From Candidatus Fimenecus sp. (GTDB lineage: Bacteria; Bacillota; Clostridia; Oscillospirales; Acutalibacteraceae), in NCBI GenBank assembly GCA_045632525.1, contig JAZQWV010000046.1:574-64573 (forward strand): a DNA stretch of 64,000 bases, in the 5' to 3' direction. The translations under genes were made by a program, and so were the position numbers. This document shows, one piece after another, positions 49,508 to 63,483 of the stretch; position 1 is the first letter of the stretch, and every line of letters begins with the position of its first letter. The notes beneath the pieces are model-generated. The model worked only from the letters and a program-made list of their open reading frames with translations. It made no database searches and had not been told where the DNA came from.

Positions 49508-49561
49508 TGGTGCGGGTAACAGGACTTGAACCTGCAAGTCTTGCGACACATGAACCTGAAT
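49508..49561 (-). pseudogene. 3' half of host tRNA-Leu(CAG): anticodon loop to CCA (attL of island 2)
   Basis: Minus strand reads ATTCAGGT-TCATG-TGTCGCAAGACTT-GCAGGTTCAAGTCCTGT-TACCCGC-ACCA. No 5' half is adjacent. Confidence 0.8.
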
Positions 49562-50258: not shown

Positions 50259-51857
50259 ATGAAAATTTTTTATTCTTGGCAATCTGATTTGCCGAATAGT
50301 AAAACGAGGGGATTTATCCAAGACTGTATCGATGCGGCAATAAAGCATTTGTCTGATATAGTTTTTATAGAGGCAGATCGTGACACGCAAGGCGAATTTG
50401 GATCTCCTGATATTGTAGAGACTGTTTTTTCTAAAATAGATGAGTGTGACTTATTTATTGCCGATGTTAGCATTGTGAACAAATATAATGCTATTGACGA
50501 TAACGGTGAAAAATCAAAAGCAATTAAATTATCCCCAAATCCTAATGTTCTTTTGGAATTGGGTTATGCAGCAAAAGCGCTTACATGGGAAAGAGTCGTA
50601 TGTATTATGAATACTGACTATGGTAAAGTCGGTGAACTTCCTTTTGATTTAGAACATAGAAGGCCACTACAATACTCGTTAGATGGTCAAAAAAAGTCGG
50701 CAGTAAAAGAGTATGTTCGCAATATCATAGTGGGCAATGTTTTAAATGTTATGGAAGAAGGCGTTCGTGCCAAAGGCAATACCGCAAATCATATTGTCGG
50801 GGGTATTTCTATGGAGAATGGAGAAATATCAAATTCTATTACTCCACTAGACCTACGGCTAACAAACAGTTTTAAAACTAAATATGATGAACTTAAAGAT
50901 GCATGTTTGTCGTTAATTGAAAAAATTAATTCAAACAAGTTGCCAACAACCGTTACGAGCGATGAGACGAAAGAAATTGATGCGCAAGAACAGACCAAAG
51001 AAGAAAAACTTTCAGCAATGGCAAAAACAATTACGTTGTTTATGGAGGAAGGTAAACCGGTTTCTATAAACGACAATGATATAGCGTGGATTCGTCAACA
51101 AGTAAAATTATTGTTTAGAATAGACTTAGCCGATGATTTTTTCAGCTTGGGTGACTTGAAAATTAAAATAGGTAATTTTTTGGTTCAATCAGAGTATATC
51201 GGCACGACAAACGAAAAGGTTAAGTATGATGATTTGAGAGATTTGCAATCAAAGCTATTAAAGCTTGATGTGCTTGAGCTTTTTATAAAAACTTTTGACG
51301 ACTTGATATTATTACCTTTAGCAATATATAACAACTCTACGATTTCAGACGAGGAAATCTCGATATCGGTAGTTGTTGACCCTGAAACCGCAGAAGTGGT
51401 TATTCCCTCTAGAGAACTCTTGGCTGAAGAACTTCGCGGGGATGATGAGCATGTTGGATTAGAAGGTGCCGTGTATGATGCTGGCTACGCTAAGATACTT
51501 ATGATGCCTGAAAGTGGCGAAATAACTTATGATACAGATATTTCTTTCGACCCAAGCGATATACAGAAAGAATTGCGTAAAAACGCAACTGATGTTTTTG
51601 GAAACTCTACATATAAACCTGATGCAGATGATTACGAAGATGAAATCATAAAGTTTATAGCATCTCCAATGCAAGGACGAAACGATACGTTGTTGTTTGA
51701 GATTGAAAGCCTTAGAGCAAACGAAAGAAAATGGATAGGTCCATTAATTGCATTAAAACCGAAATCTGATACTATTCGTTTGTCATATTCGGTAAAATCT
51801 AAAAATTCAAATGGTCTTATTTCTTCCGATTTGATATGCAAAAATAGTAATAAGTAA
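50259..51857 (+). CDS. NDT/TIR-like N-terminal domain protein with ~380-aa uncharacterised C-terminal region
   Basis: MKIFYSWQSDLP...CDLFIADVS...NPNVLLELGYAAKAL resembles the nucleoside 2-deoxyribosyltransferase/TIR-like Rossmannoid pattern (D..E.GYA). TAGGAG RBS. Confidence 0.55.
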   Translation: MKIFYSWQSDLPNSKTRGFIQDCIDAAIKHLSDIVFIEADRDTQGEFGSPDIVETVFSKIDECDLFIADVSIVNKYNAIDDNGEKSKAIKLSPNPNVLLELGYAAKALTWERVVCIMNTDYGKVGELPFDLEHRRPLQYSLDGQKKSAVKEYVRNIIVGNVLNVMEEGVRAKGNTANHIVGGISMENGEISNSITPLDLRLTNSFKTKYDELKDACLSLIEKINSNKLPTTVTSDETKEIDAQEQTKEEKLSAMAKTITLFMEEGKPVSINDNDIAWIRQQVKLLFRIDLADDFFSLGDLKIKIGNFLVQSEYIGTTNEKVKYDDLRDLQSKLLKLDVLELFIKTFDDLILLPLAIYNNSTISDEEISISVVVDPETAEVVIPSRELLAEELRGDDEHVGLEGAVYDAGYAKILMMPESGEITYDTDISFDPSDIQKELRKNATDVFGNSTYKPDADDYEDEIIKFIASPMQGRNDTLLFEIESLRANERKWIGPLIALKPKSDTIRLSYSVKSKNSNGLISSDLICKNSNK

Positions 51858-52665: not shown

Positions 52666-52977
52666 TTATCTGTTATTTAATCGTTCTGCGGTGCTAATAA
52701 GCACGTCAAGATCTTCTTGGGACATGTTACGAGTTAACTCATATAATTTTTGAACGAGCTGAGGTTCTTTTATATCTTCGTCGAAGAACTCTCTAGGAGT
52801 AACGCCTAGATATTCACATATATAAAGAAACTCTCCCAAGGACGGCATTGATCTGCCAGATGAAATACTCTGCATATAACTCTTGCTGTGTCCTAAGTCT
52901 GTGCTCATTCTATATTCCGAAACATTCTTTTTCGTTCTTAAAACAGAAATTCTATCCCTAATAAATTGTAAATCCAT
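52666..52977 (-). CDS. XRE-family HTH repressor
   Basis: VSEYRMSTDLGHSKSYMQSISSGRSMPSLGEFLYICEYLGVTPREFF. ATG 52977 after GAGGTG. Confidence 0.8.
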   Translation of the reverse strand: MDLQFIRDRISVLRTKKNVSEYRMSTDLGHSKSYMQSISSGRSMPSLGEFLYICEYLGVTPREFFDEDIKEPQLVQKLYELTRNMSQEDLDVLISTAERLNNR

Positions 52978-53014
52978 CGTCAACACCTCGCATTTATTAT
53001 TGTATAATAATTTT

Positions 53015-54458: not shown

Positions 54459-54836
54459 ATGGGTGGTTATATAAAAAGAGATGCTGTGCAAAGATTTGAA
54501 ACTATGGCTTTAAATACCAAGGTTAATAAAGAAATCTTTGATGCTTTTAAAGACCATTGCAAGGAAATGGGGTATCCTATGAATGTTATGCTCGAAACAT
54601 TCATGCAGCAATATGCGAATGGAAGATTTAATTTAAACTCAGAAGATATCCTTAAATGGAAAAATGATGACTATGATGTTGAAACTTTGAACACAACATT
54701 TAACAAAGAAATTTATCTAAGCTTTAAATCCAAATGTAAGGGTAATGGATATTTTGTAAAACATGTAATAATGGCATTTATGGAAAAGTTTGCAAGTAAG
54801 AATTTAATTTTGGAATATGTATGGTTTGAAAATTGA
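54459..54836 (+). CDS. tandem-repeat DNA-binding-like protein (two RHH-like modules)
   Basis: LNTKVNKEIFDAFKDHCKEMGYPMNVMLETFMQQYA and LNTTFNKEIYLSFKSKCKGNGYFVKHVIMAFMEKFA. AGGAGG RBS. Confidence 0.5.
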   Translation: MGGYIKRDAVQRFETMALNTKVNKEIFDAFKDHCKEMGYPMNVMLETFMQQYANGRFNLNSEDILKWKNDDYDVETLNTTFNKEIYLSFKSKCKGNGYFVKHVIMAFMEKFASKNLILEYVWFEN

Positions 54837-54885: not shown

Positions 54886-56262
54886 ATGTTTTATGTATAT
54901 AGATTCTTAGATAAAACTAAAAATGTTATTTATGTAGGTAAATCAAAACAGGATTTAGAACAACGTTTTAGAGGACATTTGCATTTACCAGAAGAATGTT
55001 ATGATCAAGTATATAAAATCGAATACATAGAGTGCTCTACGGAATCGGATATGTCGATTAAAGAAATTTATTACATTAACAAGTATCGAAATACTAATTT
55101 TTTCTTTAATGTGCTGGATACTACCGAATTGCCAACAAGTGTTACCTTCGATGATAAATGGAAGCAGTACAAAGGACCTTTGGGTTCTCATTTTCACAAA
55201 TCAATTAATTATAAAAAAGGTTATACCAGTGAAAAAACGGTACGATACAACAAAGATGGCTCTATAGACAAACGAAAGACCAATAAAAAGAAAGGTGATT
55301 CTTCGTTTGTCGAAGGCTTTACAAGTGATGAAGTTGATTTAATAATTAAGCAACTTATTAAAAATATTAATGAGGCAACAAATAATAATCAGGAACAGAT
55401 TAGATTTAGAAATTTGATGATGTTTATGTTAAGCATAAACCTACCTTTAAAAACAAATGATTTCTTAAATCTTAAGTACAAAGATTTGTTTGATAGTAAG
55501 GATAAATTAAAATCTGTTGAAATGAAGTTGAGTAGATTTTATAAAGACACTATCCTTAAAGTTCCCTTACGAAAAAATGTTCGTAAGATAATATTGGCGT
55601 ATACCCAAAGATACAACATGTCTTACAGTGAAAATTCAGAAGATTATCTTTTTCTTTCGCGTGAACATCAAATTATTTCACCAATATCTTGGGGTCGAAT
55701 CCTTTTAGACACATCCAAAGCAGCAGGGATTACTAAAAGCATTGGTGCAGAATCAATTCGAAAAACATATGGGATCAATGTATACACCCGTTCCGAAGAC
55801 AAACTTAATGCATTGCTGTTCTTAGGGGAACTGTGGGGACACATTCGTGAAGCTCAGATAATACGTTATTTGAATCTTTCTGAAGATGAGATTGATTACA
55901 AGTATTATTTTGGCGAAGCCTATGCAATCGGAAAGGTGAGTTTATCTAAAATCAAATGTTTAAAAAATAATGATGAATCTTCAAAAAAAGATTTGATTCC
56001 CGATACTCTTTCTAAGAAAAGATTTGCTCAAATCCCGAAAAAGACTATTAATCCATCTAAAAAAACTTCTAAAAAGAAACGGCAAGTATTCCCTGTCGAG
56101 AAAAAGGTAGAGATAATTAAGAAAAATTTAAATGATAAAATCCTAATAAAAACGCTTGCAGAAGAGTATAAAATTTCAATGAATACAATATGTAATTGGA
56201 TAACTTTATATAAGAAATACGGCGAGTCGGGTTTGGAAGATAGGCGTTACAAAAACGAATAA
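54886..56262 (+). CDS. GIY-YIG domain / degenerate tyrosine-recombinase-like domain / IS3-OrfA-like HTH fusion protein
   Basis: YVYRFLD..VIYVGKS..RF..H (GIY-YIG). ESIRKTYG and LWGHIREAQIIRYL align to recombinase box II/Tyr region but lack the first Arg and both His. C-terminal LAEEYKISMNTICNWI HTH. Confidence 0.55.
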   Translation: MFYVYRFLDKTKNVIYVGKSKQDLEQRFRGHLHLPEECYDQVYKIEYIECSTESDMSIKEIYYINKYRNTNFFFNVLDTTELPTSVTFDDKWKQYKGPLGSHFHKSINYKKGYTSEKTVRYNKDGSIDKRKTNKKKGDSSFVEGFTSDEVDLIIKQLIKNINEATNNNQEQIRFRNLMMFMLSINLPLKTNDFLNLKYKDLFDSKDKLKSVEMKLSRFYKDTILKVPLRKNVRKIILAYTQRYNMSYSENSEDYLFLSREHQIISPISWGRILLDTSKAAGITKSIGAESIRKTYGINVYTRSEDKLNALLFLGELWGHIREAQIIRYLNLSEDEIDYKYYFGEAYAIGKVSLSKIKCLKNNDESSKKDLIPDTLSKKRFAQIPKKTINPSKKTSKKKRQVFPVEKKVEIIKKNLNDKILIKTLAEEYKISMNTICNWITLYKKYGESGLEDRRYKNE

Positions 56263-57104: not shown

Positions 57105-57935
57105 ATGGCAGTTAAAATAAGCAAATTACTTTGTGCTATGTTGGCATTAATGATTTTTATGACCGCTTGTGGTAACACTAAAGAGCAAACTAAATGTGGA
57201 TCGTGTGGCGAAAGCATTAGTGGCAATGCGAAATTCTGCTCTAATTGTGGTGCCGGAATAGCCGTTGATAAAGAAGAAACTACTACTTCAGAGTCCTCTA
57301 ACAGCGAGACTAAATGTACTCACACTTGGCTTGACGCTACATGCTCTTCGGCTAAAAAATGTGAATTGTGTGGAATTATTGAAGGCAACCCCCTTTCTCA
57401 TAATTGGAGTGAAGCATCATGCACTTCACCTAAAAAATGCACATTATGTGGACAAACAAGCGGCAAAGCAAAAGGACATCAATGGATGGATGCTACATAC
57501 GAAAATCCCAAGTATTGTGTTATTTGTGGGGTCGAGTCTGGAGAACCTTTGGTAGATCCTAATTATGACAAATATATTATGGCAGCACATCTTTACCAAG
57601 CGGTAATTGATTCTGCCAAATTCCCATCATCTGTTCGTATCGAACGAGCATATTATATTGGCGATCTTGGGCAAGGGTATCCTGCTGTTAGATTAGAGTG
57701 TGCTGCCGCCAATTCAATGGGTGGTAGTGGAATACTCTATGGTGTTGTTATACAATATCCGGCAGTGGGATATGAAGATGATCCGTATGCCGATCATATA
57801 TATGCTTATGAAGACAAATATTGTTTTGAATGTAATATATATGATAATTGTCCGGTTCTAAATTATAATGGTTATGAAAAGTTAGATATTTCACGCATTG
57901 AAAGTGTACATGAAAACGATATTAATTTTAATTAA
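57105..57935 (+). CDS. lipoprotein with zinc-ribbon and three Cys-rich H.W...C....K.C..CG repeats
   Basis: Signal peptide ending MTAC (lipobox-like). CGSCGE..FCSNCG, then three repeats. AAGGAG RBS. Confidence 0.6.
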   Translation: MAVKISKLLCAMLALMIFMTACGNTKEQTKCGSCGESISGNAKFCSNCGAGIAVDKEETTTSESSNSETKCTHTWLDATCSSAKKCELCGIIEGNPLSHNWSEASCTSPKKCTLCGQTSGKAKGHQWMDATYENPKYCVICGVESGEPLVDPNYDKYIMAAHLYQAVIDSAKFPSSVRIERAYYIGDLGQGYPAVRLECAAANSMGGSGILYGVVIQYPAVGYEDDPYADHIYAYEDKYCFECNIYDNCPVLNYNGYEKLDISRIESVHENDINFN

Positions 57936-58088
57936 CTATATGATTTTCTAAGATTTTCAAATATCATTTTCTTCTTTTATAAATTAATAAATTGTTTAAA
58001 ATTTCATATAACTCTTTACTGCTGTTACATAACTCTACACAACTCTACGGGGTGAGGTTTGAGCAGTAAAAGAGTGGCAAAACCAGGG

Positions 58089-58117
58089 TTGACAAAGGGT
58101 TTTCCTCATGTTAAACT
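58089..58117 (+). promoter_or_regulatory. promoter at the start of the ORF-free region
   Basis: TTGACA, 17 nt (ending TGT), TAAACT. Confidence 0.45.
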
Positions 58118-58123
58118 AATAAT

Positions 58124-58285
58124 GACCTATTTAAAATAAAGCAGGAGTGTTTTTAAAAGATAACGAAAATTGCAATGTTCCGAGAGGGTTAATTGCGCTT
58201 GTTTGTTATGCTTGGCTCCTGTGTATAGGGCAATGGCAAAAGGACTGCAAGTAAGCACTTACCTTTCGGGGTAGGTGCTTTTTTG
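58124..58285 (+). ncRNA. candidate ~160-nt small RNA (promoter to intrinsic terminator)
   Basis: No RBS-associated ORF. Ends in AGCACTTACC-tttcg-GGTAGGTGCT plus T6; the T:G wobble in the stem is only valid on the plus strand. Confidence 0.4.
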
Positions 58286-58399
58286 TTATCTTTTTGCCTT
58301 CTTTTTATGTTTTGTCCTCCGGTAAGTGACGGGGCCAAAATAAACACATAAAAGAAGGAGTATTCAAAATGATTGTATTTGACAACACGGGAAGTTAGT

Positions 58400-59260
58400 T
58401 GCACCAAAGGTTTGGTGCCGAGAGCTACAGTCTGAGGTCTGCGACAGGCTGAGAATCACTGGCAGAAAGCCCTTGAAGTCGGGTTAGACTTCATCAGCCG
58501 ATGCCCTAAGGCTGATTATCCGTATGACCCGTAGGCGTGGTAATACGGAATTAAAGAGCTATCACTGTTCTGGCAACGGACAGGGTGATATATTAAATGG
58601 GCATCACGGAATGTAAGTGACCTATTACGTTGCTCGGTTTTATGATTACCCGTAATTAATCAGAACCCACATTCACGCTGTGGTCCAAAATACGATAGTA
58701 GGAAAAGCCGTGATATACAAAGCCCGTCACGAAGGCAATGTGAATTTTAAAGTGCGGATAGCAGAGCCGTTACGAAACGAGGATTGTTCGACTGCGAACC
58801 TGCGTACACGGCAGACCGGATGGTATAGTGTAAAAAAACCACTTGTGCACAGTGGGCGAAGATGCAAAGTGCAATATACAGATATGCTTTCACTTATGGC
58901 AATCTGTGAACGAAAATAAGTGCATAACGACGGCTTGGATTCAGCCATAAGTTATTGACGAAAATTATGGAATCCACGACGTTTGAGAGTTCCGTCGTAA
59001 AATAAAACTGCTCAAGCGGTGGTGCTACCGTCCATTAAGGGAATTCTCCAGCCCTTATGGGAATTGCACACGAAGTTTCCGGGGTTTAATCGGTAATGAA
59101 AATCCCCGCCGAACGAGCCCTTAGTCTCGGCCAGGCTGAAATGCCTTGCACTCGGCGTAGCGTCAGTAAATAATACAAGGTTATTTACACTCTTGAACTA
59201 CAAGAGAACACGCACGGAAAATCTATTAATCTTGCGTTAAAGTGTAAATAGATTAAGCCA
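58400..59260. ncRNA. candidate large structured ncRNA (GC-rich, helix-dense, ORF-free); identity unknown
   Basis: Hand counts give 45-62% G+C per 60-nt line versus about 28% in the neighbouring gene. Many nested helices. Only mutually overlapping RBS-less ORFs. Confidence 0.4.
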
Positions 59261-59312
59261 AGTACTAACCTTATTTTACAGCAGAATACCAGAACAGAAC
59301 TTTCGCTTTGGG

Positions 59313-60045
59313 ATGATTTATGACTGTCTCTTCGAGAGTGTATGATTTACTTTTCGAGAGCAAGTTGCACCTGCTAAACAAACCTTCGGCTCTCTGCAAG
59401 TTGTCATTCGTGGAATGAATGACAAGCTGCAGGAAGCCGAAGAGAATAACAAACAAACTACAAAGCAGGTGCTATGACTATCATTTCTATGATGATAAAT
59501 GACTGTCCTTTTGAAATGATTTATGACTCTCTTTTTGGGAGCCGAGCCGTTTCTATTGGACGAAGTCAGATAGAAACGGCTCGGAGACGTAGTCGGAGAG
59601 CCGAGATTAGCAGGGCATAATACCCCGCGTCAAAGAAGAATCAGTAAGAAATGAAGGTTCGTACACACCTTTGACAGTGGGTGTATTATGCCCTGCGTAC
59701 TTTCATTTTAAGAGCCATATAGAGTAATTATAGATTAATATTAGATTACATTTTACAATGACTTTAATTTGTATATGGCTCTTGTATGATTGATGATTTA
59801 CTTTTCGAAATGATATATTACCTATCTTTTTGAAATGATATTTTGAAATTACTTTCATTCCCCTAAAAAAGGATTGTGCTGACCGTCCTTTCGAGATTAC
59901 TTTCTTTTCGATATCATGTCAGCACAATCTGCTGAAAGATTTTTATGCTTTACGTTTTGATATGATATATGACTTTCGTTTCGAAATGAGCAATGCGTTC
60001 CTATTTTCATTTTGAAATGCTTTATGACTGTCATTTCGAAATGAG
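59313..60045 (+). repeat. array of about 12 direct iterons, consensus (T)TATGACTGTC(N)TTTCGAAATGAG, interspersed with three long inverted repeats
   Basis: Copies start at 59313, 59341, 59497, 59519, 59791, 59813, 59838, 59881, 59898, 59965, 60000 and 60020. The best copy contains the 14-bp palindrome TCATTTCGAAATGA. Confidence 0.7.
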
Positions 60046-60211
60046 GGGGCAAAATTTTCGTCAACAGAATTATTTTCGTCATGAGAACCCCAAATATTTT
60101 ATTGACGAAAATACATCTATTATTACTATTCTCGTACACAGTTTTTCACGCAAGGCTCGGTCCCTATCCTTGCGTTGAAATAAAATTTTTAGAGAAAGGA
60201 GACGGTTTGCT

Positions 60212-61165
60212 ATGTCAGATTCTAATAATATTACAGTGCTAAACCCGGGTCTGTATAAAAACTTGTTGGCACAGGTTGAAGCAATTTACAACCACAGTAA
60301 TGAACTTAGTTTTAAAACAAGAGCTCGGTACTTTGAAGCAACAAAAAGGTTATGTAAGTTTTTAGCCGATAATTTTCGTTTGCAAAACTTCAAGAATGTG
60401 GAAGACCGGCACTTTAAAGCGTATGTGGAACACCTGAAAGAAAACAATTCCGCTGCAACTATTCAATCCGATCTGTCGGGCATACGGTATTTCCACAGAA
60501 AATCCGGTAGTAAAAACAGGCTATCCCCTAATAGCAAGTTAAATCTGCCCAAACGAGCGACGGGTGTAAAAGACCATTCGCTATTAGATAAAGAGCTTGT
60601 CAATATTCGACAGTGGGCTATCCAAACAGGTCGGCAGGATGCGGTAATTGCGATAGACTTTTCCAGTGAATTTGGTCTACGGCTTGAAGAAATCTGCACA
60701 CTGAGAGTTGAATACCTTATGTCTGCATTAAAAACAGGACAGCTCGTCATAAAAGGCAAAGGCGGTCAGACAAGGGCTATTGATTTAAGCGCAAAGCAGC
60801 GCGGTATTATTACCGATAATTTGAACTATGCCAGGTGTTCAGGGCGGTATCCAAGAGATTATTTAATCTCAAGAAGTGAAAAGGGCGGCGTACAGCGAGA
60901 AAAGCGTTCTTTGCAGAATTGGATGAGTTATAACAGAAAATACTTTATGGTAGAAAACCGTGAGGATTTGAGTGAAGACGGTAAAAAGAAAAGAACTGAA
61001 ACAATCTCATGGCACAGTCTGAGACACACCTATGCACAAAGAACCTATGAAGAAGCTTTAAAAGAAAGACCGAAGAAAGCCCGAAAGATTGTAAGCGAAA
61101 ACTTAGGTCACCATCGGACTGAAGTAACAAGAATTTATTTGGCCGATAAGCCAAAGAAAAAGTAA
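60212..61165 (+). CDS. tyrosine recombinase (317 aa, plasmid/resolvase-like size)
   Basis: FGLRLEEICTLRV, KGKGGQTR, WHSLRHTYAQ, LGHHRTEVTRIYL: the full catalytic set. Confidence 0.85.
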   Translation: MSDSNNITVLNPGLYKNLLAQVEAIYNHSNELSFKTRARYFEATKRLCKFLADNFRLQNFKNVEDRHFKAYVEHLKENNSAATIQSDLSGIRYFHRKSGSKNRLSPNSKLNLPKRATGVKDHSLLDKELVNIRQWAIQTGRQDAVIAIDFSSEFGLRLEEICTLRVEYLMSALKTGQLVIKGKGGQTRAIDLSAKQRGIITDNLNYARCSGRYPRDYLISRSEKGGVQREKRSLQNWMSYNRKYFMVENREDLSEDGKKKRTETISWHSLRHTYAQRTYEEALKERPKKARKIVSENLGHHRTEVTRIYLADKPKKK

Positions 61166-61377
61166 TCTATTAATTAAAATTGTGAAGGAAGAATTTAAAT
61201 TGACTACAATATCCTGCTGACGAAAATCTGTAGGATTGATATATAGGGACAAAAAATAGGAAGAATGTAACGGCGGTGACATCCGTCACCGCCTGTAAGG
61301 AGTATTTATTATGTTATATGTTTCAAGGCCAGCCTCCGGCGGAAATGGAGGCAAATAATATAGGAGGTAAAGTGTCC

Positions 61378-61584
61378 ATGAAAGATATTAGCGTTCCCAT
61401 TTGGCAGAAGAGTAATTTAACACTCGATGAAGCCGCCGCTTATTCCGGCATCGGTAAAAACACTATGCGTAATCTCTGTAACGCAGAAGATTGCGACTTT
61501 GTGTTATGGATTGGTGCAAAGCGGTTAATCAAGAGACAAAAATTAGACGAATATCTTGCTAATCGTACTCGCATTGAAAGATAA
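61378..61584 (+). CDS. excisionase/MerR-type HTH protein
   Basis: LTLDEAAAYSGIGKNTMRNLC...LWIGAKRLIKRQKLDEYL. AGGAGG upstream. The longer track ORF starts inside a 9-bp GC hairpin. Confidence 0.65.
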   Translation: MKDISVPIWQKSNLTLDEAAAYSGIGKNTMRNLCNAEDCDFVLWIGAKRLIKRQKLDEYLANRTRIER

Positions 61585-62032: not shown

Positions 62033-63214
62033 ATGGTAAAAGGATCCGTACAGGAAAAAGGTGGCTATTTGCATACCGTTATCAGTTACACCGATAAAGA
62101 CGGTAAGCGAAAGCAAAAATGGCAAAGCACAGGGCTTACAGCCAAAGGTAACAAGCGTAAGGCACAAGAATTTTTGAAAGAACGCATTGATGAGTTGGAG
62201 ATGACACTTGAACGTGAAGAAACTCAAATACCCGATATGCCGTTCTCGCAGTTTATGTCAAACTGGCTTACGATGATTAAACCCACCGTTTTAATTACCA
62301 CCTACGGCAGCTATCAGTATTTCATTGAAAAGAGAATTAACCCCTATTTTGATGAAAAGAATATTACACTGCAAAAGATACGAACAGTGGATATTCAAGA
62401 GTATTACAACACAATGTTGTCGAAGGGTACGAAATGGAATTCGGTTGCAAAGCATCATGCAATCATTCGCAAGGCACTCGATTATGCGGTTAAGATGGAT
62501 TACATATTAGTAAACCCCGCAGTAAAAATCGAAACACCTAAGCGACAAAAGTTTATTGCTGAGCATTATAACCGTGAGGAGCTTCAGGAACTTTTTGAAG
62601 CAGTAAAGGGTGATTTGCTTGAAGTTCCCGTTATACTCTCGGCGTTCTATGGGCTTCGAAGAAGTGAGGCTTTAGGACTAAAGTGGAGTGCGATTGATTT
62701 CGAGCAGAAAACCCTATGTATTAAGCATACTGTGTGCCGAATATCTGTTGACGGCAAGGATGTAATTGTTCGCAAAGACACTACGAAAAATAAAACAAGT
62801 CTTAGAACGTTGCCCCTAATACCTGATGTTGAAAAATTATTGCTTAAAACCAAAAAGCAACAAGAGAGCAACCGAAGAAAATGTCGCAACGCATATAACA
62901 AGGAATTCCTTGATTATGTGTGCGTAGATGATATGGGGAATCTTTTAAGGCCGGATTATCTGTCACAACATTTACAGACTGTGCTCAAAAGAAATAACCT
63001 AAAGCATATTCGGTATCACGATTTGCGACACTCTTGCGCTTCGCTATTACTTGCCAACGGTGTATCTTTAAAAGAAATCCAAGACTGGTTAGGCCATTCG
63101 GATTTCAGTACAACGGCAAATATTTATAGCCATTTAGAGTATGGAGCCAAGGTCAAGTCTGCTAACAAGATTGCAGAAAACTTGAGCCTTGAAGAAAAGA
63201 CAAAGGACGGGTAA
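62033..63214 (+). CDS. int: tyrosine integrase with N-terminal arm-binding-type domain (Tn916-Int-like layout)
   Basis: GSVQEKGGYLHTVISYTDKDGKRKQKW, GLRRSEALGLKWSAIDF, YHDLRHSCASLL, LGHSDFSTTANIYSHL. Confidence 0.9.
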   Translation: MVKGSVQEKGGYLHTVISYTDKDGKRKQKWQSTGLTAKGNKRKAQEFLKERIDELEMTLEREETQIPDMPFSQFMSNWLTMIKPTVLITTYGSYQYFIEKRINPYFDEKNITLQKIRTVDIQEYYNTMLSKGTKWNSVAKHHAIIRKALDYAVKMDYILVNPAVKIETPKRQKFIAEHYNREELQELFEAVKGDLLEVPVILSAFYGLRRSEALGLKWSAIDFEQKTLCIKHTVCRISVDGKDVIVRKDTTKNKTSLRTLPLIPDVEKLLLKTKKQQESNRRKCRNAYNKEFLDYVCVDDMGNLLRPDYLSQHLQTVLKRNNLKHIRYHDLRHSCASLLLANGVSLKEIQDWLGHSDFSTTANIYSHLEYGAKVKSANKIAENLSLEEKTKDG

Positions 63215-63367: not shown

Positions 63368-63454
63368 ATGGTGCGGGTAACAGGACTTGAACCTGCACAG
63401 CCTTGCGACCATTAGAACCTGAATCTAACGCGTCTGCCAATTCCGCCATACCCG
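63368..63454 (-). tRNA. island-borne tRNA-Leu(CAG), intact, 87 nt with encoded CCA
   Basis: GCGGGTA/TACCCGC acceptor, GCG/CGC D-stem, TTAGA-TTCAGGT-TCTAA anticodon arm, long variable arm, GCAGG-TTCAAGT-CCTGT T arm. Confidence 0.9.
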
Positions 63455-63483
63455 CATATATGACTTAAATCCTTTCAAAAATC

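Follow-up and report, generated by a model that had tools for sequence, protein, structure and literature searches.

Relaxases of the MOB_M class are tyrosine-recombinase-like proteins that have often been annotated as integrases and are missed by standard tools; they are reported to be the commonest relaxase class in chromosomes, and 96% of them are found near an integrase (bioRxiv 10.64898/2026.01.13.699239). In pIGRK and pCW3, the origin of transfer (oriT) immediately precedes the gene (PMC8152469); in SGI1, it is located near the mps genes (PMC6414798). SGI1 depends in addition on a small RNA (sRNA) whose gene is situated between mpsA and oriT and has a terminator-like element close to its promoter (PMC9299015). 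In the TnpI/IRS system (IRS, internal recombination site), the site consists of an inverted-repeat core and same-oriented accessory motifs, which are bound by the same enzyme and impose direction (PMC2847244). Here we compare with such systems a repeat-rich region and the adjacent gene of a 317-amino-acid (aa) tyrosine recombinase, both located in a 64,000-nt stretch of DNA (hereafter, the window) from Candidatus Fimenecus sp. (assembly GCA_045632525.1, contig JAZQWV010000046.1, positions 574 to 64,573 of the forward strand). The repeats lie in conserved, non-coding DNA that is linked exclusively to the recombinase and is part of an integrated island. This non-coding region is most likely a DNA-processing site through which the recombinase moves or maintains the island, and not a classical replication origin.

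The conserved module

In a scan covering one genome per species, 153 loci were found to encode relatives of the recombinase, and the best 80 of these were examined; they come from metagenome-assembled genomes (MAGs) of Acutalibacteraceae, Oscillospiraceae, and other Clostridia from gut and rumen. DNA homology to the window among these 80 loci begins at ~58100 and extends to 61263–61368, ending on both sides, with differing cargo on the left. The shared part is a module of ~3.2 kb (about 58100–61300), consisting of 2.1 kb of non-coding DNA and the recombinase gene (60212–61165, + strand). The initial annotation of this DNA had treated 59313–60180 as the whole feature; this interval turns out to be the right half of the conserved non-coding block, which starts near 58100. 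According to the analysis of codon phase in 18 loci, 54–84% of variable sites in the recombinase gene fall in one phase, and no 180-nt segment of 58051–60150 exceeds 49%. Mean variability in the non-coding block (0.04–0.12) equals or falls below that in the gene (0.07–0.14); the block is under constraint despite being non-coding.

The recombinase is the only protein conserved with the non-coding block. None of the cargo proteins encoded in the window is conserved in the related loci, and most are absent from them; just after the recombinase, genes of at least six unrelated families are found, and no second gene is conserved there. The excisionase/integrase region to the right of the module is matched in a minority of loci only; at other loci, a large serine recombinase or a different integrase takes this place, and defense genes are frequent as cargo. 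Thus, the recombinase is the only element-encoded candidate for the reader of the conserved sites, as no other protein is conserved with them; the alternative reader is a host or helper factor, which would also account for the stronger conservation of the sites compared with the protein. Two other binders had been proposed in the initial annotation, namely, a tandem RHH-like protein (54459–54836), which is absent from every related locus, and an XRE repressor (52666–52986), with weak partial matches in six loci only. Since neither is conserved in related loci, neither can be the general binder.

The same annotation had counted about 12 repeats of one orientation. We find 13 copies of a 23-nt repeat with the consensus TGACTTTCTTTTCGAAATGATAT, all on the + strand, at 59297–60047, where the repeat search gives families of 7–10 direct copies. 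The copies form a triplet at 59297–59365 (starts 59297, 59321, and 59343, at approximately -920, -896, and -874 from the recombinase ATG in related loci), a pair at 59500–59546 (starts 59500 and 59524), identified with the weight matrix, a pair at 59794–59841 (starts 59794 and 59819), where many loci have one additional 24-nt unit, an overlapping pair starting at 59880 and 59897, and two pairs at 59946–60047 (starts 59946/59970 and 60001/60025). The start-to-start spacing inside pairs and triplets is 22–25 nt, apart from the overlapping pair, at 17 nt. The 23-nt weight matrix scores above 17 bits at the 13 sites of the array and does not exceed 13.9 bits elsewhere on either strand of the 64 kb. 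In a leave-one-out test of 14 candidates against ~126,000 background positions, ten candidates beat all background positions, three tied with the best one, and one, the degenerate copy at 59475, failed and is considered unsupported. As to the palindromic core ascribed to the repeats, the exact TTTCGAAA is present in just three copies and the relaxed form TTTYGARA fits nine.

It had been predicted that the repeats would persist in homologous elements that keep the recombinase, and they do: in 58 out of 69 related loci, the repeat matrix detects 4–13 sites, arranged in the same way with respect to the start of the recombinase, the sole minus-strand match being a palindromic copy. Loci without repeat sites have either too little upstream sequence or other sequence upstream of ~60127. 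A homologue with 60% protein identity has ~15 repeats of the same consensus together with the palindromes I1 (with identical arms), I2, and I3 and the M motifs (all described below), and the layout of repeats is kept in homologues at 60–65% protein identity. The strongest evidence that the array is not a chance product is this recurrence of the same array and hairpins in 58 of the 69 loci. The number of repeats differs by whole units between loci in a 34-locus alignment, and repeat-to-repeat deletions are seen in metatranscriptome and metagenome contigs.

The anatomy of the remaining cis elements was read from the same alignment. The four inverted repeats of the initial annotation are all present, one of them (I2, 59542–59584) with longer arms than the 13 bp claimed, and two elements are added here, I1 (59384–59442) and the M block (60054–60141). 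I1, an imperfect palindrome, is the longest inverted repeat, with 26-nt arms (59384–59409/59417–59442) and 7 nt between them; its inner part is TTGTCATTC-N7-GAATGACAA, that is, 9-bp inverted arms around a variable 7-bp spacer. The arms are invariant in all 34 loci, including three fixed mismatches, and unchanged in the homologue with 60% protein identity, and the central 5–7 nt vary (TGGAA, TATTA, CTTTAG, TGTAA, CGTGAG, and others). With this geometry I1 looks like a tyrosine-recombinase core site, and it is our candidate for the core (cleavage) site of the 317-aa recombinase.

I2 has 20-nt arms, 90% identical, which are invariant around a variable 3–4-nt center; it is entirely deleted, between GAGCCGAG direct repeats, in two loci (L029 and L059). 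Palindromes of a similar kind, GAG..TTTCTCTAT, precede the genes of homologues on Firmicutes plasmids. In a single locus, L057 (5315–5358, corresponding to 59542–59584 of the window), the central 14–16 bp of I2 are reversed in a flip/flop-like manner. I3 (59610–59696) is a composite hairpin with a 17-bp outer stem and a 7-bp inner stem, GTCAAAG/CTTTGAC; compensatory changes are seen at two of its pairs (UA 28/AU 3 and AU 18/UA 8), and one more in L122. I11 (59710–59783) and I13 (59872–59929) are perfect 12-bp inverted repeats: the former encloses an AT-rich loop (59722–59771) that varies in sequence and length, and its outer stem has been lost in one sub-clade; the latter brackets the overlapping repeats at 59880 and 59897, and its arms are invariant in 33 out of 34 loci. 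The inverted-repeat pairs of the repeat region have no strand bias (104 G–U cells versus 108 A–C cells), and mismatches are conserved too; hence, these palindromes look like double-stranded DNA sites and not like RNA. No significant half-site is common to the repeats and the arms of I1, I2, or M (half-matrices of the repeat on the I1 and I2 arms give p = 0.01–0.03, which is not significant), and the repeats, I1, I2, and M are distinct motif classes.

The upstream half of the block (58100–59300) starts with a sigma-70-like promoter, TTGACA-17-TAAACT with a TG extension (58089–58117, + strand); conservation climbs from ~0.35 to ~0.75 exactly here, marking the left edge of the module. An intrinsic terminator with a 12-bp stem and a U tract (58253–58290, + strand) closes an sRNA-like or attenuator unit of ~165 nt and has compensatory stem changes across 14 loci. 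In this candidate sRNA or attenuator (58089–58290, + strand), both the internal hairpin and the terminator carry compensatory changes; a ribosome-binding site and a 9-codon open reading frame (MIVFDNTGS) follow at 58354–58398. The conserved region 58118–59296 (+ strand) has no codon periodicity and contains covarying hairpins; several of them lie at 58885–59310 (e.g., CG 11/UA 10/UG 5), where optional stem insertions also occur. The consensus fold has -75 kcal/mol for the + strand versus -59 for the - strand. Judging from sequence, this region is probably a structured + strand RNA or single-stranded DNA. Rfam 15 gives no gathering-score match in the window except for tRNAs, and nothing meaningful at E <= 1 in 57800–60300. 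Two further details concern this half of the block. An insertion of ~80 bp (58802–58884) is present in this window only and corresponds to a gap in ~79% of the aligned loci. The hexamer TAGCGT at 59158–59163, within the 100% conserved block GCACTCGGCGTAGCG of the structured region, is identical to the CS-6 motif of ssoA-type single-strand origins; a chance match of a 6-mer is expected about once per 4 kb.

Repeats of one orientation with a spacing of 22–25 nt, beside an AT-rich segment and hairpins, recall an origin, and a theta-type origin had been suggested in the initial annotation. In that case the array would be the replication origin of the excised circle, the repeats serving as iterons and the AT-rich loop of I11 as the unwinding element, with an initiator that a helper or the host would provide in trans, or with ColE1-like RNA priming from the upstream structured RNA. 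The strong promoter upstream, the structured + strand RNA, and the terminator-bounded small RNA agree with this scheme, and cis sites more conserved than the protein are what one expects if a conserved trans factor reads them; moreover, ResD, the resolvase of the F plasmid, and its site are situated near the origin. However, none of the 80+ related loci contains a Rep gene, the region 58100–60200 has no DnaA box (TTATCCACA with at most one mismatch), there are no circular contigs among the whole-contig loci, the array is not found on the plasmids or phages searched, and the presumed unwinding loop varies in sequence and length and has lost its stem in one clade. We consider a replication origin improbable.

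Could the repeat region act as RNA instead, as a long 5' leader or non-coding RNA that runs from the 58089 promoter towards the recombinase, with the repeats as protein-binding motifs? All repeats are on one strand, there is RNA-type covariation on the + strand just upstream, and metatranscriptome contigs span the whole module (58000–61450). These contigs cover only the module, are unstranded and may contain DNA, and so speak neither for nor against transcription. The unbiased inverted-repeat pairs with their conserved mismatches point, as said above, to double-stranded DNA sites, and the core of the repeat is a palindrome without a spacer, which cannot fold as a hairpin. An RNA role of the repeat region thus appears even less probable than an origin.

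The module and its recombinase have a wide distribution, with 576 proteins related to the recombinase at E <= 0.001. A blastn search of plasmids and phages with 58100–60211 gave no match; in IMG/VR, the repeat pattern produced 31 single chance matches and no arrays, and there were no relatives of the recombinase. The absence of arrays and recombinase relatives from IMG/VR led us to drop a phage or satellite interpretation. Very many related contigs (L004–L083) break off less than a few hundred bases before the start of the recombinase gene, and 2–3 copies of the module are present in several MAGs, in one case two on the same contig (L047, L048); taken together, these breaks and copy numbers indicate that the module is a multi-copy repeat that breaks assemblies. 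A four-gamete scan for recombination hot spots was uninformative, with incompatibilities everywhere (the minimum number of recombination events, Rm, is 228 for 457 sites).

The recombinase and the M block

The recombinase at 60212–61165, identified already in the initial annotation, matches the Pfam families PF00589, PF12834, and PF02899. Its catalytic domain (PF00589, E 3e-9) contains R157, K183, H268, R271, H300, and Y309, all invariant or at least 90% conserved among 11 diverse members. The SAM-like core-binding domain (PF12834 and PF02899) occupies residues 28–101; it is preceded by ~27 residues, and there is no arm-binding domain. On this predicted architecture, the protein is classified in the simple two-domain tyrosine recombinase superfamily. 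An AlphaFold model built from 11 sequences, with a mean predicted local distance difference test (pLDDT) score of 57, was too poor for a fold search.

The family profile gives the highest scores, 130–192 bits, to recombinases of small Firmicutes plasmids, and 58–61 bits to PF12834-type recombinases of small Proteobacterial plasmids, followed by XerA (32 bits), Cre (25), TcpM (23), IntI4 (19), and XerD (13); the integrase of the same island has 2 bits. The BLASTP similarity between TcpM and the C-terminal catalytic region of the recombinase is local (36% over 53 aa, E 2e-6). The homologues on small plasmids reside on replicons typed "non-mobilizable," which carry little besides a Rep gene. The upstream regions of distant relatives are likewise long and non-coding, with large palindromes. 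In Salmonella, islands comprising a P4-type Int, AlpA, DUF2857, TraR, and cargo genes have 1.2–1.3 kb of non-coding DNA followed by a small PF12834-type recombinase; this upstream region contains 3–4 same-oriented 25-nt repeats and a perfect inverted repeat of 13–14 bp around a 7-bp spacer; its arms terminate in GTCACTCC, the I1 counterpart being GTCATTC. The presence of upstream repeats and a core-like palindrome in the Salmonella and plasmid relatives implies that repeats and a palindrome in front of a small island recombinase are a trait of the wider family. The Salmonella homologue had no match in E. coli genomes. Two small islands of the order Int-AlpA-DUF2857-TraR-cargo-noncoding-small recombinase (L124 and L125) are found on NZ_CP022016.1, the 473-kb "plasmid unnamed1" of Salmonella India; this replicon carries the cob/cbi operon and housekeeping genes and looks chromosomal, despite being labeled a plasmid.

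Between the array and the gene lies the M block (60054–60141), four motifs of the type ATTTTCGTMCA: M1 at 60054 (+), M2 at 60072 (+), M3 at 60102 (-), and M4 at 60128 (+). The likely promoter of the recombinase, TTGACG-16-TACTAT (60102–60129), is within this block. The exact ATTTTCGTCA occurs six times in the 64-kb window, five of these in the module, including copies at 58956 in the upstream half and at 61218 near the right edge. The 10-mer TTTCGTCATG is common to M2 and to a palindrome of an A. ursingii plasmid.

In most loci, the M block has 98 nt, in the order M1(+), M2(+), a variable segment of 21 nt, M3(-), a variable segment of ~14 nt, and M4(+). In L084–87, M1 and M4 are fused and the intervening 73 nt are gone. 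At least 14 loci carry inserts of 0.9–2.6 kb after M1, M3, or M4, in one case beside a duplicated repeat pair; most loci are empty. Each insert consists of a single gene with its own promoter and terminator, always on the - strand, divergent from the recombinase. At least nine different insert genes were found, namely, six encoding XRE-HTH proteins with large C-terminal domains, two encoding ECF-sigma-like fusions, and one encoding methionyl-tRNA synthetase. The same cassette is found at different M sites; M2–M3 or M2-like units lie between two cassettes, and no locus has more than two. This pattern of inserts suggests site-specific insertion. However, the motif end at which an insert joins is not constant: the junctions fall at opposite ends of oppositely oriented M motifs. 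XRE and sigma regulators beside xis-int are also the usual regulatory module of Tn916-type elements. The complete methionyl-tRNA synthetase gene is inserted between the M block and the recombinase in L014 (3810–5393) and, with the same junction, in L070; the enzyme may be an extra, possibly inhibitor-resistant, one carried by the island.

These data bear on the possibility that the module is a site-specific recombination platform, in which strand exchange at I1 would resolve multimers of the excised, plasmid-like circle, in the manner of Cre/loxP, ResD/rfsF, and TnpI/IRS, or M motifs would serve for cassette exchange, or both, and the repeats would be accessory sites setting the topology of the synapse and the direction. 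The multi-site recombinase assembly offered in the initial annotation agrees with the data, since repeats, hairpins, and recombinase constitute one conserved module with a sole conserved protein. The enzyme has the complete set of catalytic residues and a fused core-binding domain, and among solved structures its profile matches XerA and Cre best; I1 has 9-bp arms and a 7-bp spacer that differs between elements, as expected for recombination of each element with itself. The TnpI site, composed of a core and two directly repeated accessory motifs, is likewise just upstream of its gene (PMC2847244). The M1/M4 fusion with the loss of 73 nt, the diversity of single-gene inserts in one orientation at M1, M3, or M4, the occurrence of one cassette at several M sites, and the M2–M3 or M2-like units between cassettes point in the same direction, as do the homologues on small plasmids with large palindromes upstream. 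On the other hand, the island is already equipped with an Int and a Xis, and it lacks a replication function through which multimers would become a problem. Unlike TnpI sites, the repeats do not significantly share the core motif, and thirteen accessory sites would be unprecedented; the position of insert junctions at opposite ends of oppositely oriented M motifs is not explained by a single crossover point; and, apart from the loss of a whole segment in L005, no inversion or deletion polymorphism is centered on I1. We regard a recombination platform, TnpI/IRS-like in its logic and Cre-like in its protein, as the main rival of mobilization and as somewhat less probable.

The island and its possible mobilization

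The module is part of a 13.9-kb island integrated in a tRNA-Leu gene. Its ends are a 29-bp direct repeat of the 3' end of tRNA-Leu(CAG) (63369–63397 = 49508–49536): the attL-type copy at 49508–49536 is the left end, is exactly repeated at 63369–63397, and corresponds to the same ends in L047, L050, L062, and L066; the tRNA-Leu(CAG) gene itself (63369–63455, - strand) is the integration target and the right end. Near the right end the island encodes a Tn916-like integrase (62033–63214, + strand; in other loci, other integrases here or nearby), a Tn916-type excisionase (61276–61584, + strand; PF09035), which is outside the conserved module and at whose position the gene differs among loci, and a small HTH protein. 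To their left are the 317-aa recombinase and, left of it, a stretch of 2.3 kb free of open reading frames. Pfam and NCBIfam searches revealed no Rep, Par, relaxase, type IV secretion system, or capsid domains in the island, in line with the initial annotation, which had seen no Rep, ParB, or relaxase near the recombinase.

Cargo makes up the remainder of the island and comprises a weakly TIR-like 532-aa protein, membrane proteins, the XRE repressor, the RHH-like protein, a GIY-YIG/recombinase/HTH fusion, and a zinc-ribbon lipoprotein. The 532-aa protein (50259–51857, + strand) matches the CAP12/Pycsar TIR effector domain weakly, at an E of 5.5e-4 that does not pass the cut-off. In relatives of the island, AbiE, restriction-modification, and PLD-type genes are present, and the islands look like carriers of defense genes. 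The fusion protein (54886–56262, + strand; 458 aa) combines an N-terminal GIY-YIG nuclease, a tyrosine-recombinase catalytic domain, and a C-terminal transposase-type HTH domain, which is an unusual combination; it has no counterpart among the 80+ related loci.

The RHH-like protein raises the question of whether the array serves in partition, as a centromere-like site for a protein of the RHH or ParB type. Direct-repeat arrays upstream of an operon resemble parC of R1 and pSK41, and a tandem RHH-like protein is indeed encoded in the window (54459–54836). The absence of a ParA, ParM, or ParB gene, and the absence of the RHH-like protein from all other loci, make a partition site scarcely credible.

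The reading that we prefer, tentatively and with slightly less than even confidence, is that the array is the oriT, or relaxosome platform, of a MOB_M-like (tyrosine-recombinase-type) mobilization module. It fits best because the island has Int and Xis, no other transfer function, and one conserved module. The gene context is that of MOB_M, i.e., an island, the vicinity of an integrase, and a repeat-rich region directly upstream, which is a resemblance and not a proof; in pCW3, the region upstream of tcpM has five direct and one inverted 12-bp repeats and AT-rich palindromes. Also in favor are the local alignment of TcpM with the catalytic region of the recombinase and the recurrence, in Salmonella and thus across phyla, of a long non-coding region followed by a small PF12834-type recombinase near an island integrase. 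The sequences show the repeats, their conservation and non-coding nature, their exclusive linkage to the recombinase, and the island context; the proposed binding of the repeats, nicking, and transfer are inferences, and the island is probably mobilizable.

According to this proposal, the integrase and excisionase of the island would cut it out as a circle. The small recombinase would bind the I1 palindrome (TTGTCATTC-N7-GAATGACAA) as its cleavage site, and the 13 same-oriented repeats, the hairpins I2 and I3, and the AT-rich loop of I11 would build a large relaxosome-like nucleoprotein complex, in which either the recombinase itself or a helper or host factor would occupy the repeats. The complex would then open and nick the DNA, and a co-resident conjugative element would transfer the island. 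The ATTTTCGTCA motifs near the promoter, where the regulator cassettes are found, would control expression of the recombinase, and the structured + strand transcript from the upstream half may be a cofactor or a regulator, as in SGI1.

Several observations weigh against mobilization. No conjugative helper was identified. The profile score of TcpM, 23 bits, is no better than those of Cre (25) and XerA (32), and since the similarity to TcpM is not specific, membership in MOB_M is unproven. The enzyme has the full catalytic set of a recombinase and a fused core-binding domain, and I1 has the classic geometry of a recombinase core; natural variants (the M1xM4 deletion, the cassettes at M sites, and the changes in repeat number) look like products of recombination. 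Finally, 13 repeats over 750 bp are far above any described MOB_M oriT, and the repeats have no significant match to the arms of I1, I2, or M. Mobilization and site-specific recombination are, however, not mutually exclusive.

Small islands with defense genes and other cargo abound in Clostridia of the gut and rumen, and the 3.2-kb module is the only backbone common to these islands besides interchangeable integrases. If it is a mobilization module, it would extend the newly recognized MOB_M class to uncultured Firmicutes and provide an unusually rich oriT for the study of nicking and transfer by such enzymes; if it serves for recombination or cassette exchange, it would represent a system that resembles integrons but does not belong to the IntI family. 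In either case, the recombinase together with the repeat matrix is a marker for finding islands, and a 3.2-kb fragment has been defined.

Comparison with known systems

The MOB_M modules (TcpM/oriT of pCW3, MpsA-MpsB/oriT/sgm-sRNA of SGI1, and MobK/oriT of pIGRK) also have a small tyrosine-recombinase-type protein beside a repeat-rich cis site; they too occur on islands near an integrase, and SGI1 has an adjacent small RNA. The published MOB_M oriTs have 125–186 bp, in contrast to 750 bp to 2.1 kb with 13 repeats here. MobK, TcpM, and MpsA are described without a core-binding domain (MpsB provides one in trans), whereas here it is fused to the catalytic domain, and an accessory protein such as TcpK or MpsB is not conserved.

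As in TnpI/IRS of Tn4430 and Tn5401, the gene is preceded by its own site; yet the IRS has 116 bp and two accessory motifs that share 9 bp with the core, compared with 13 repeats over 750 bp here, and the present element is an integrative island and not a Tn3-family transposon. Similarly, a simple two-domain recombinase and a palindromic core with a 7–8-bp spacer near the gene are combined in the multimer-resolution systems Cre/loxP of P1 and ResD/rfsF of F; Cre is the second-best match among solved structures, and homologues of the 317-aa recombinase are found on small plasmids. However, loxP needs no accessory sites, and here the candidate core lies amid a large array of repeats and hairpins, in an integrated island with its own integrase.

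Iteron origins (P1, F, R6K, and pPS10) and parC-type centromeres resemble the array in having ~20-bp direct repeats at about two helical turns by AT-rich DNA, and differ in that the array lacks DnaA boxes and an accompanying Rep or Par gene and is interspersed with 4–5 large conserved palindromes. Integrons have in common with the module several motifs just upstream of the recombinase gene, single-gene inserts in one orientation, and site units between inserts. Unlike in integrons, there are at most two cassettes, mostly encoding XRE or ECF-sigma regulators with their own promoter and terminator, and the sites are M-like motifs and not attC; the integron-integrase model gives no match, IntI4 reaches just 19 bits, and the recombinase is not an IntI.

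One may ask whether all these features add up to a previously undescribed platform, in which a non-IntI simple tyrosine recombinase, the core I1, a very large accessory array, an integron-like exchange of regulator cassettes at ATTTTCGTCA, and a structured RNA would form a combined mobilization and cassette-exchange device without a described counterpart; we find this unlikely. The module is of a known kind, a recombinase with an upstream cis site, which is here unusual in its size and complexity and is widespread in uncultured gut Clostridia.

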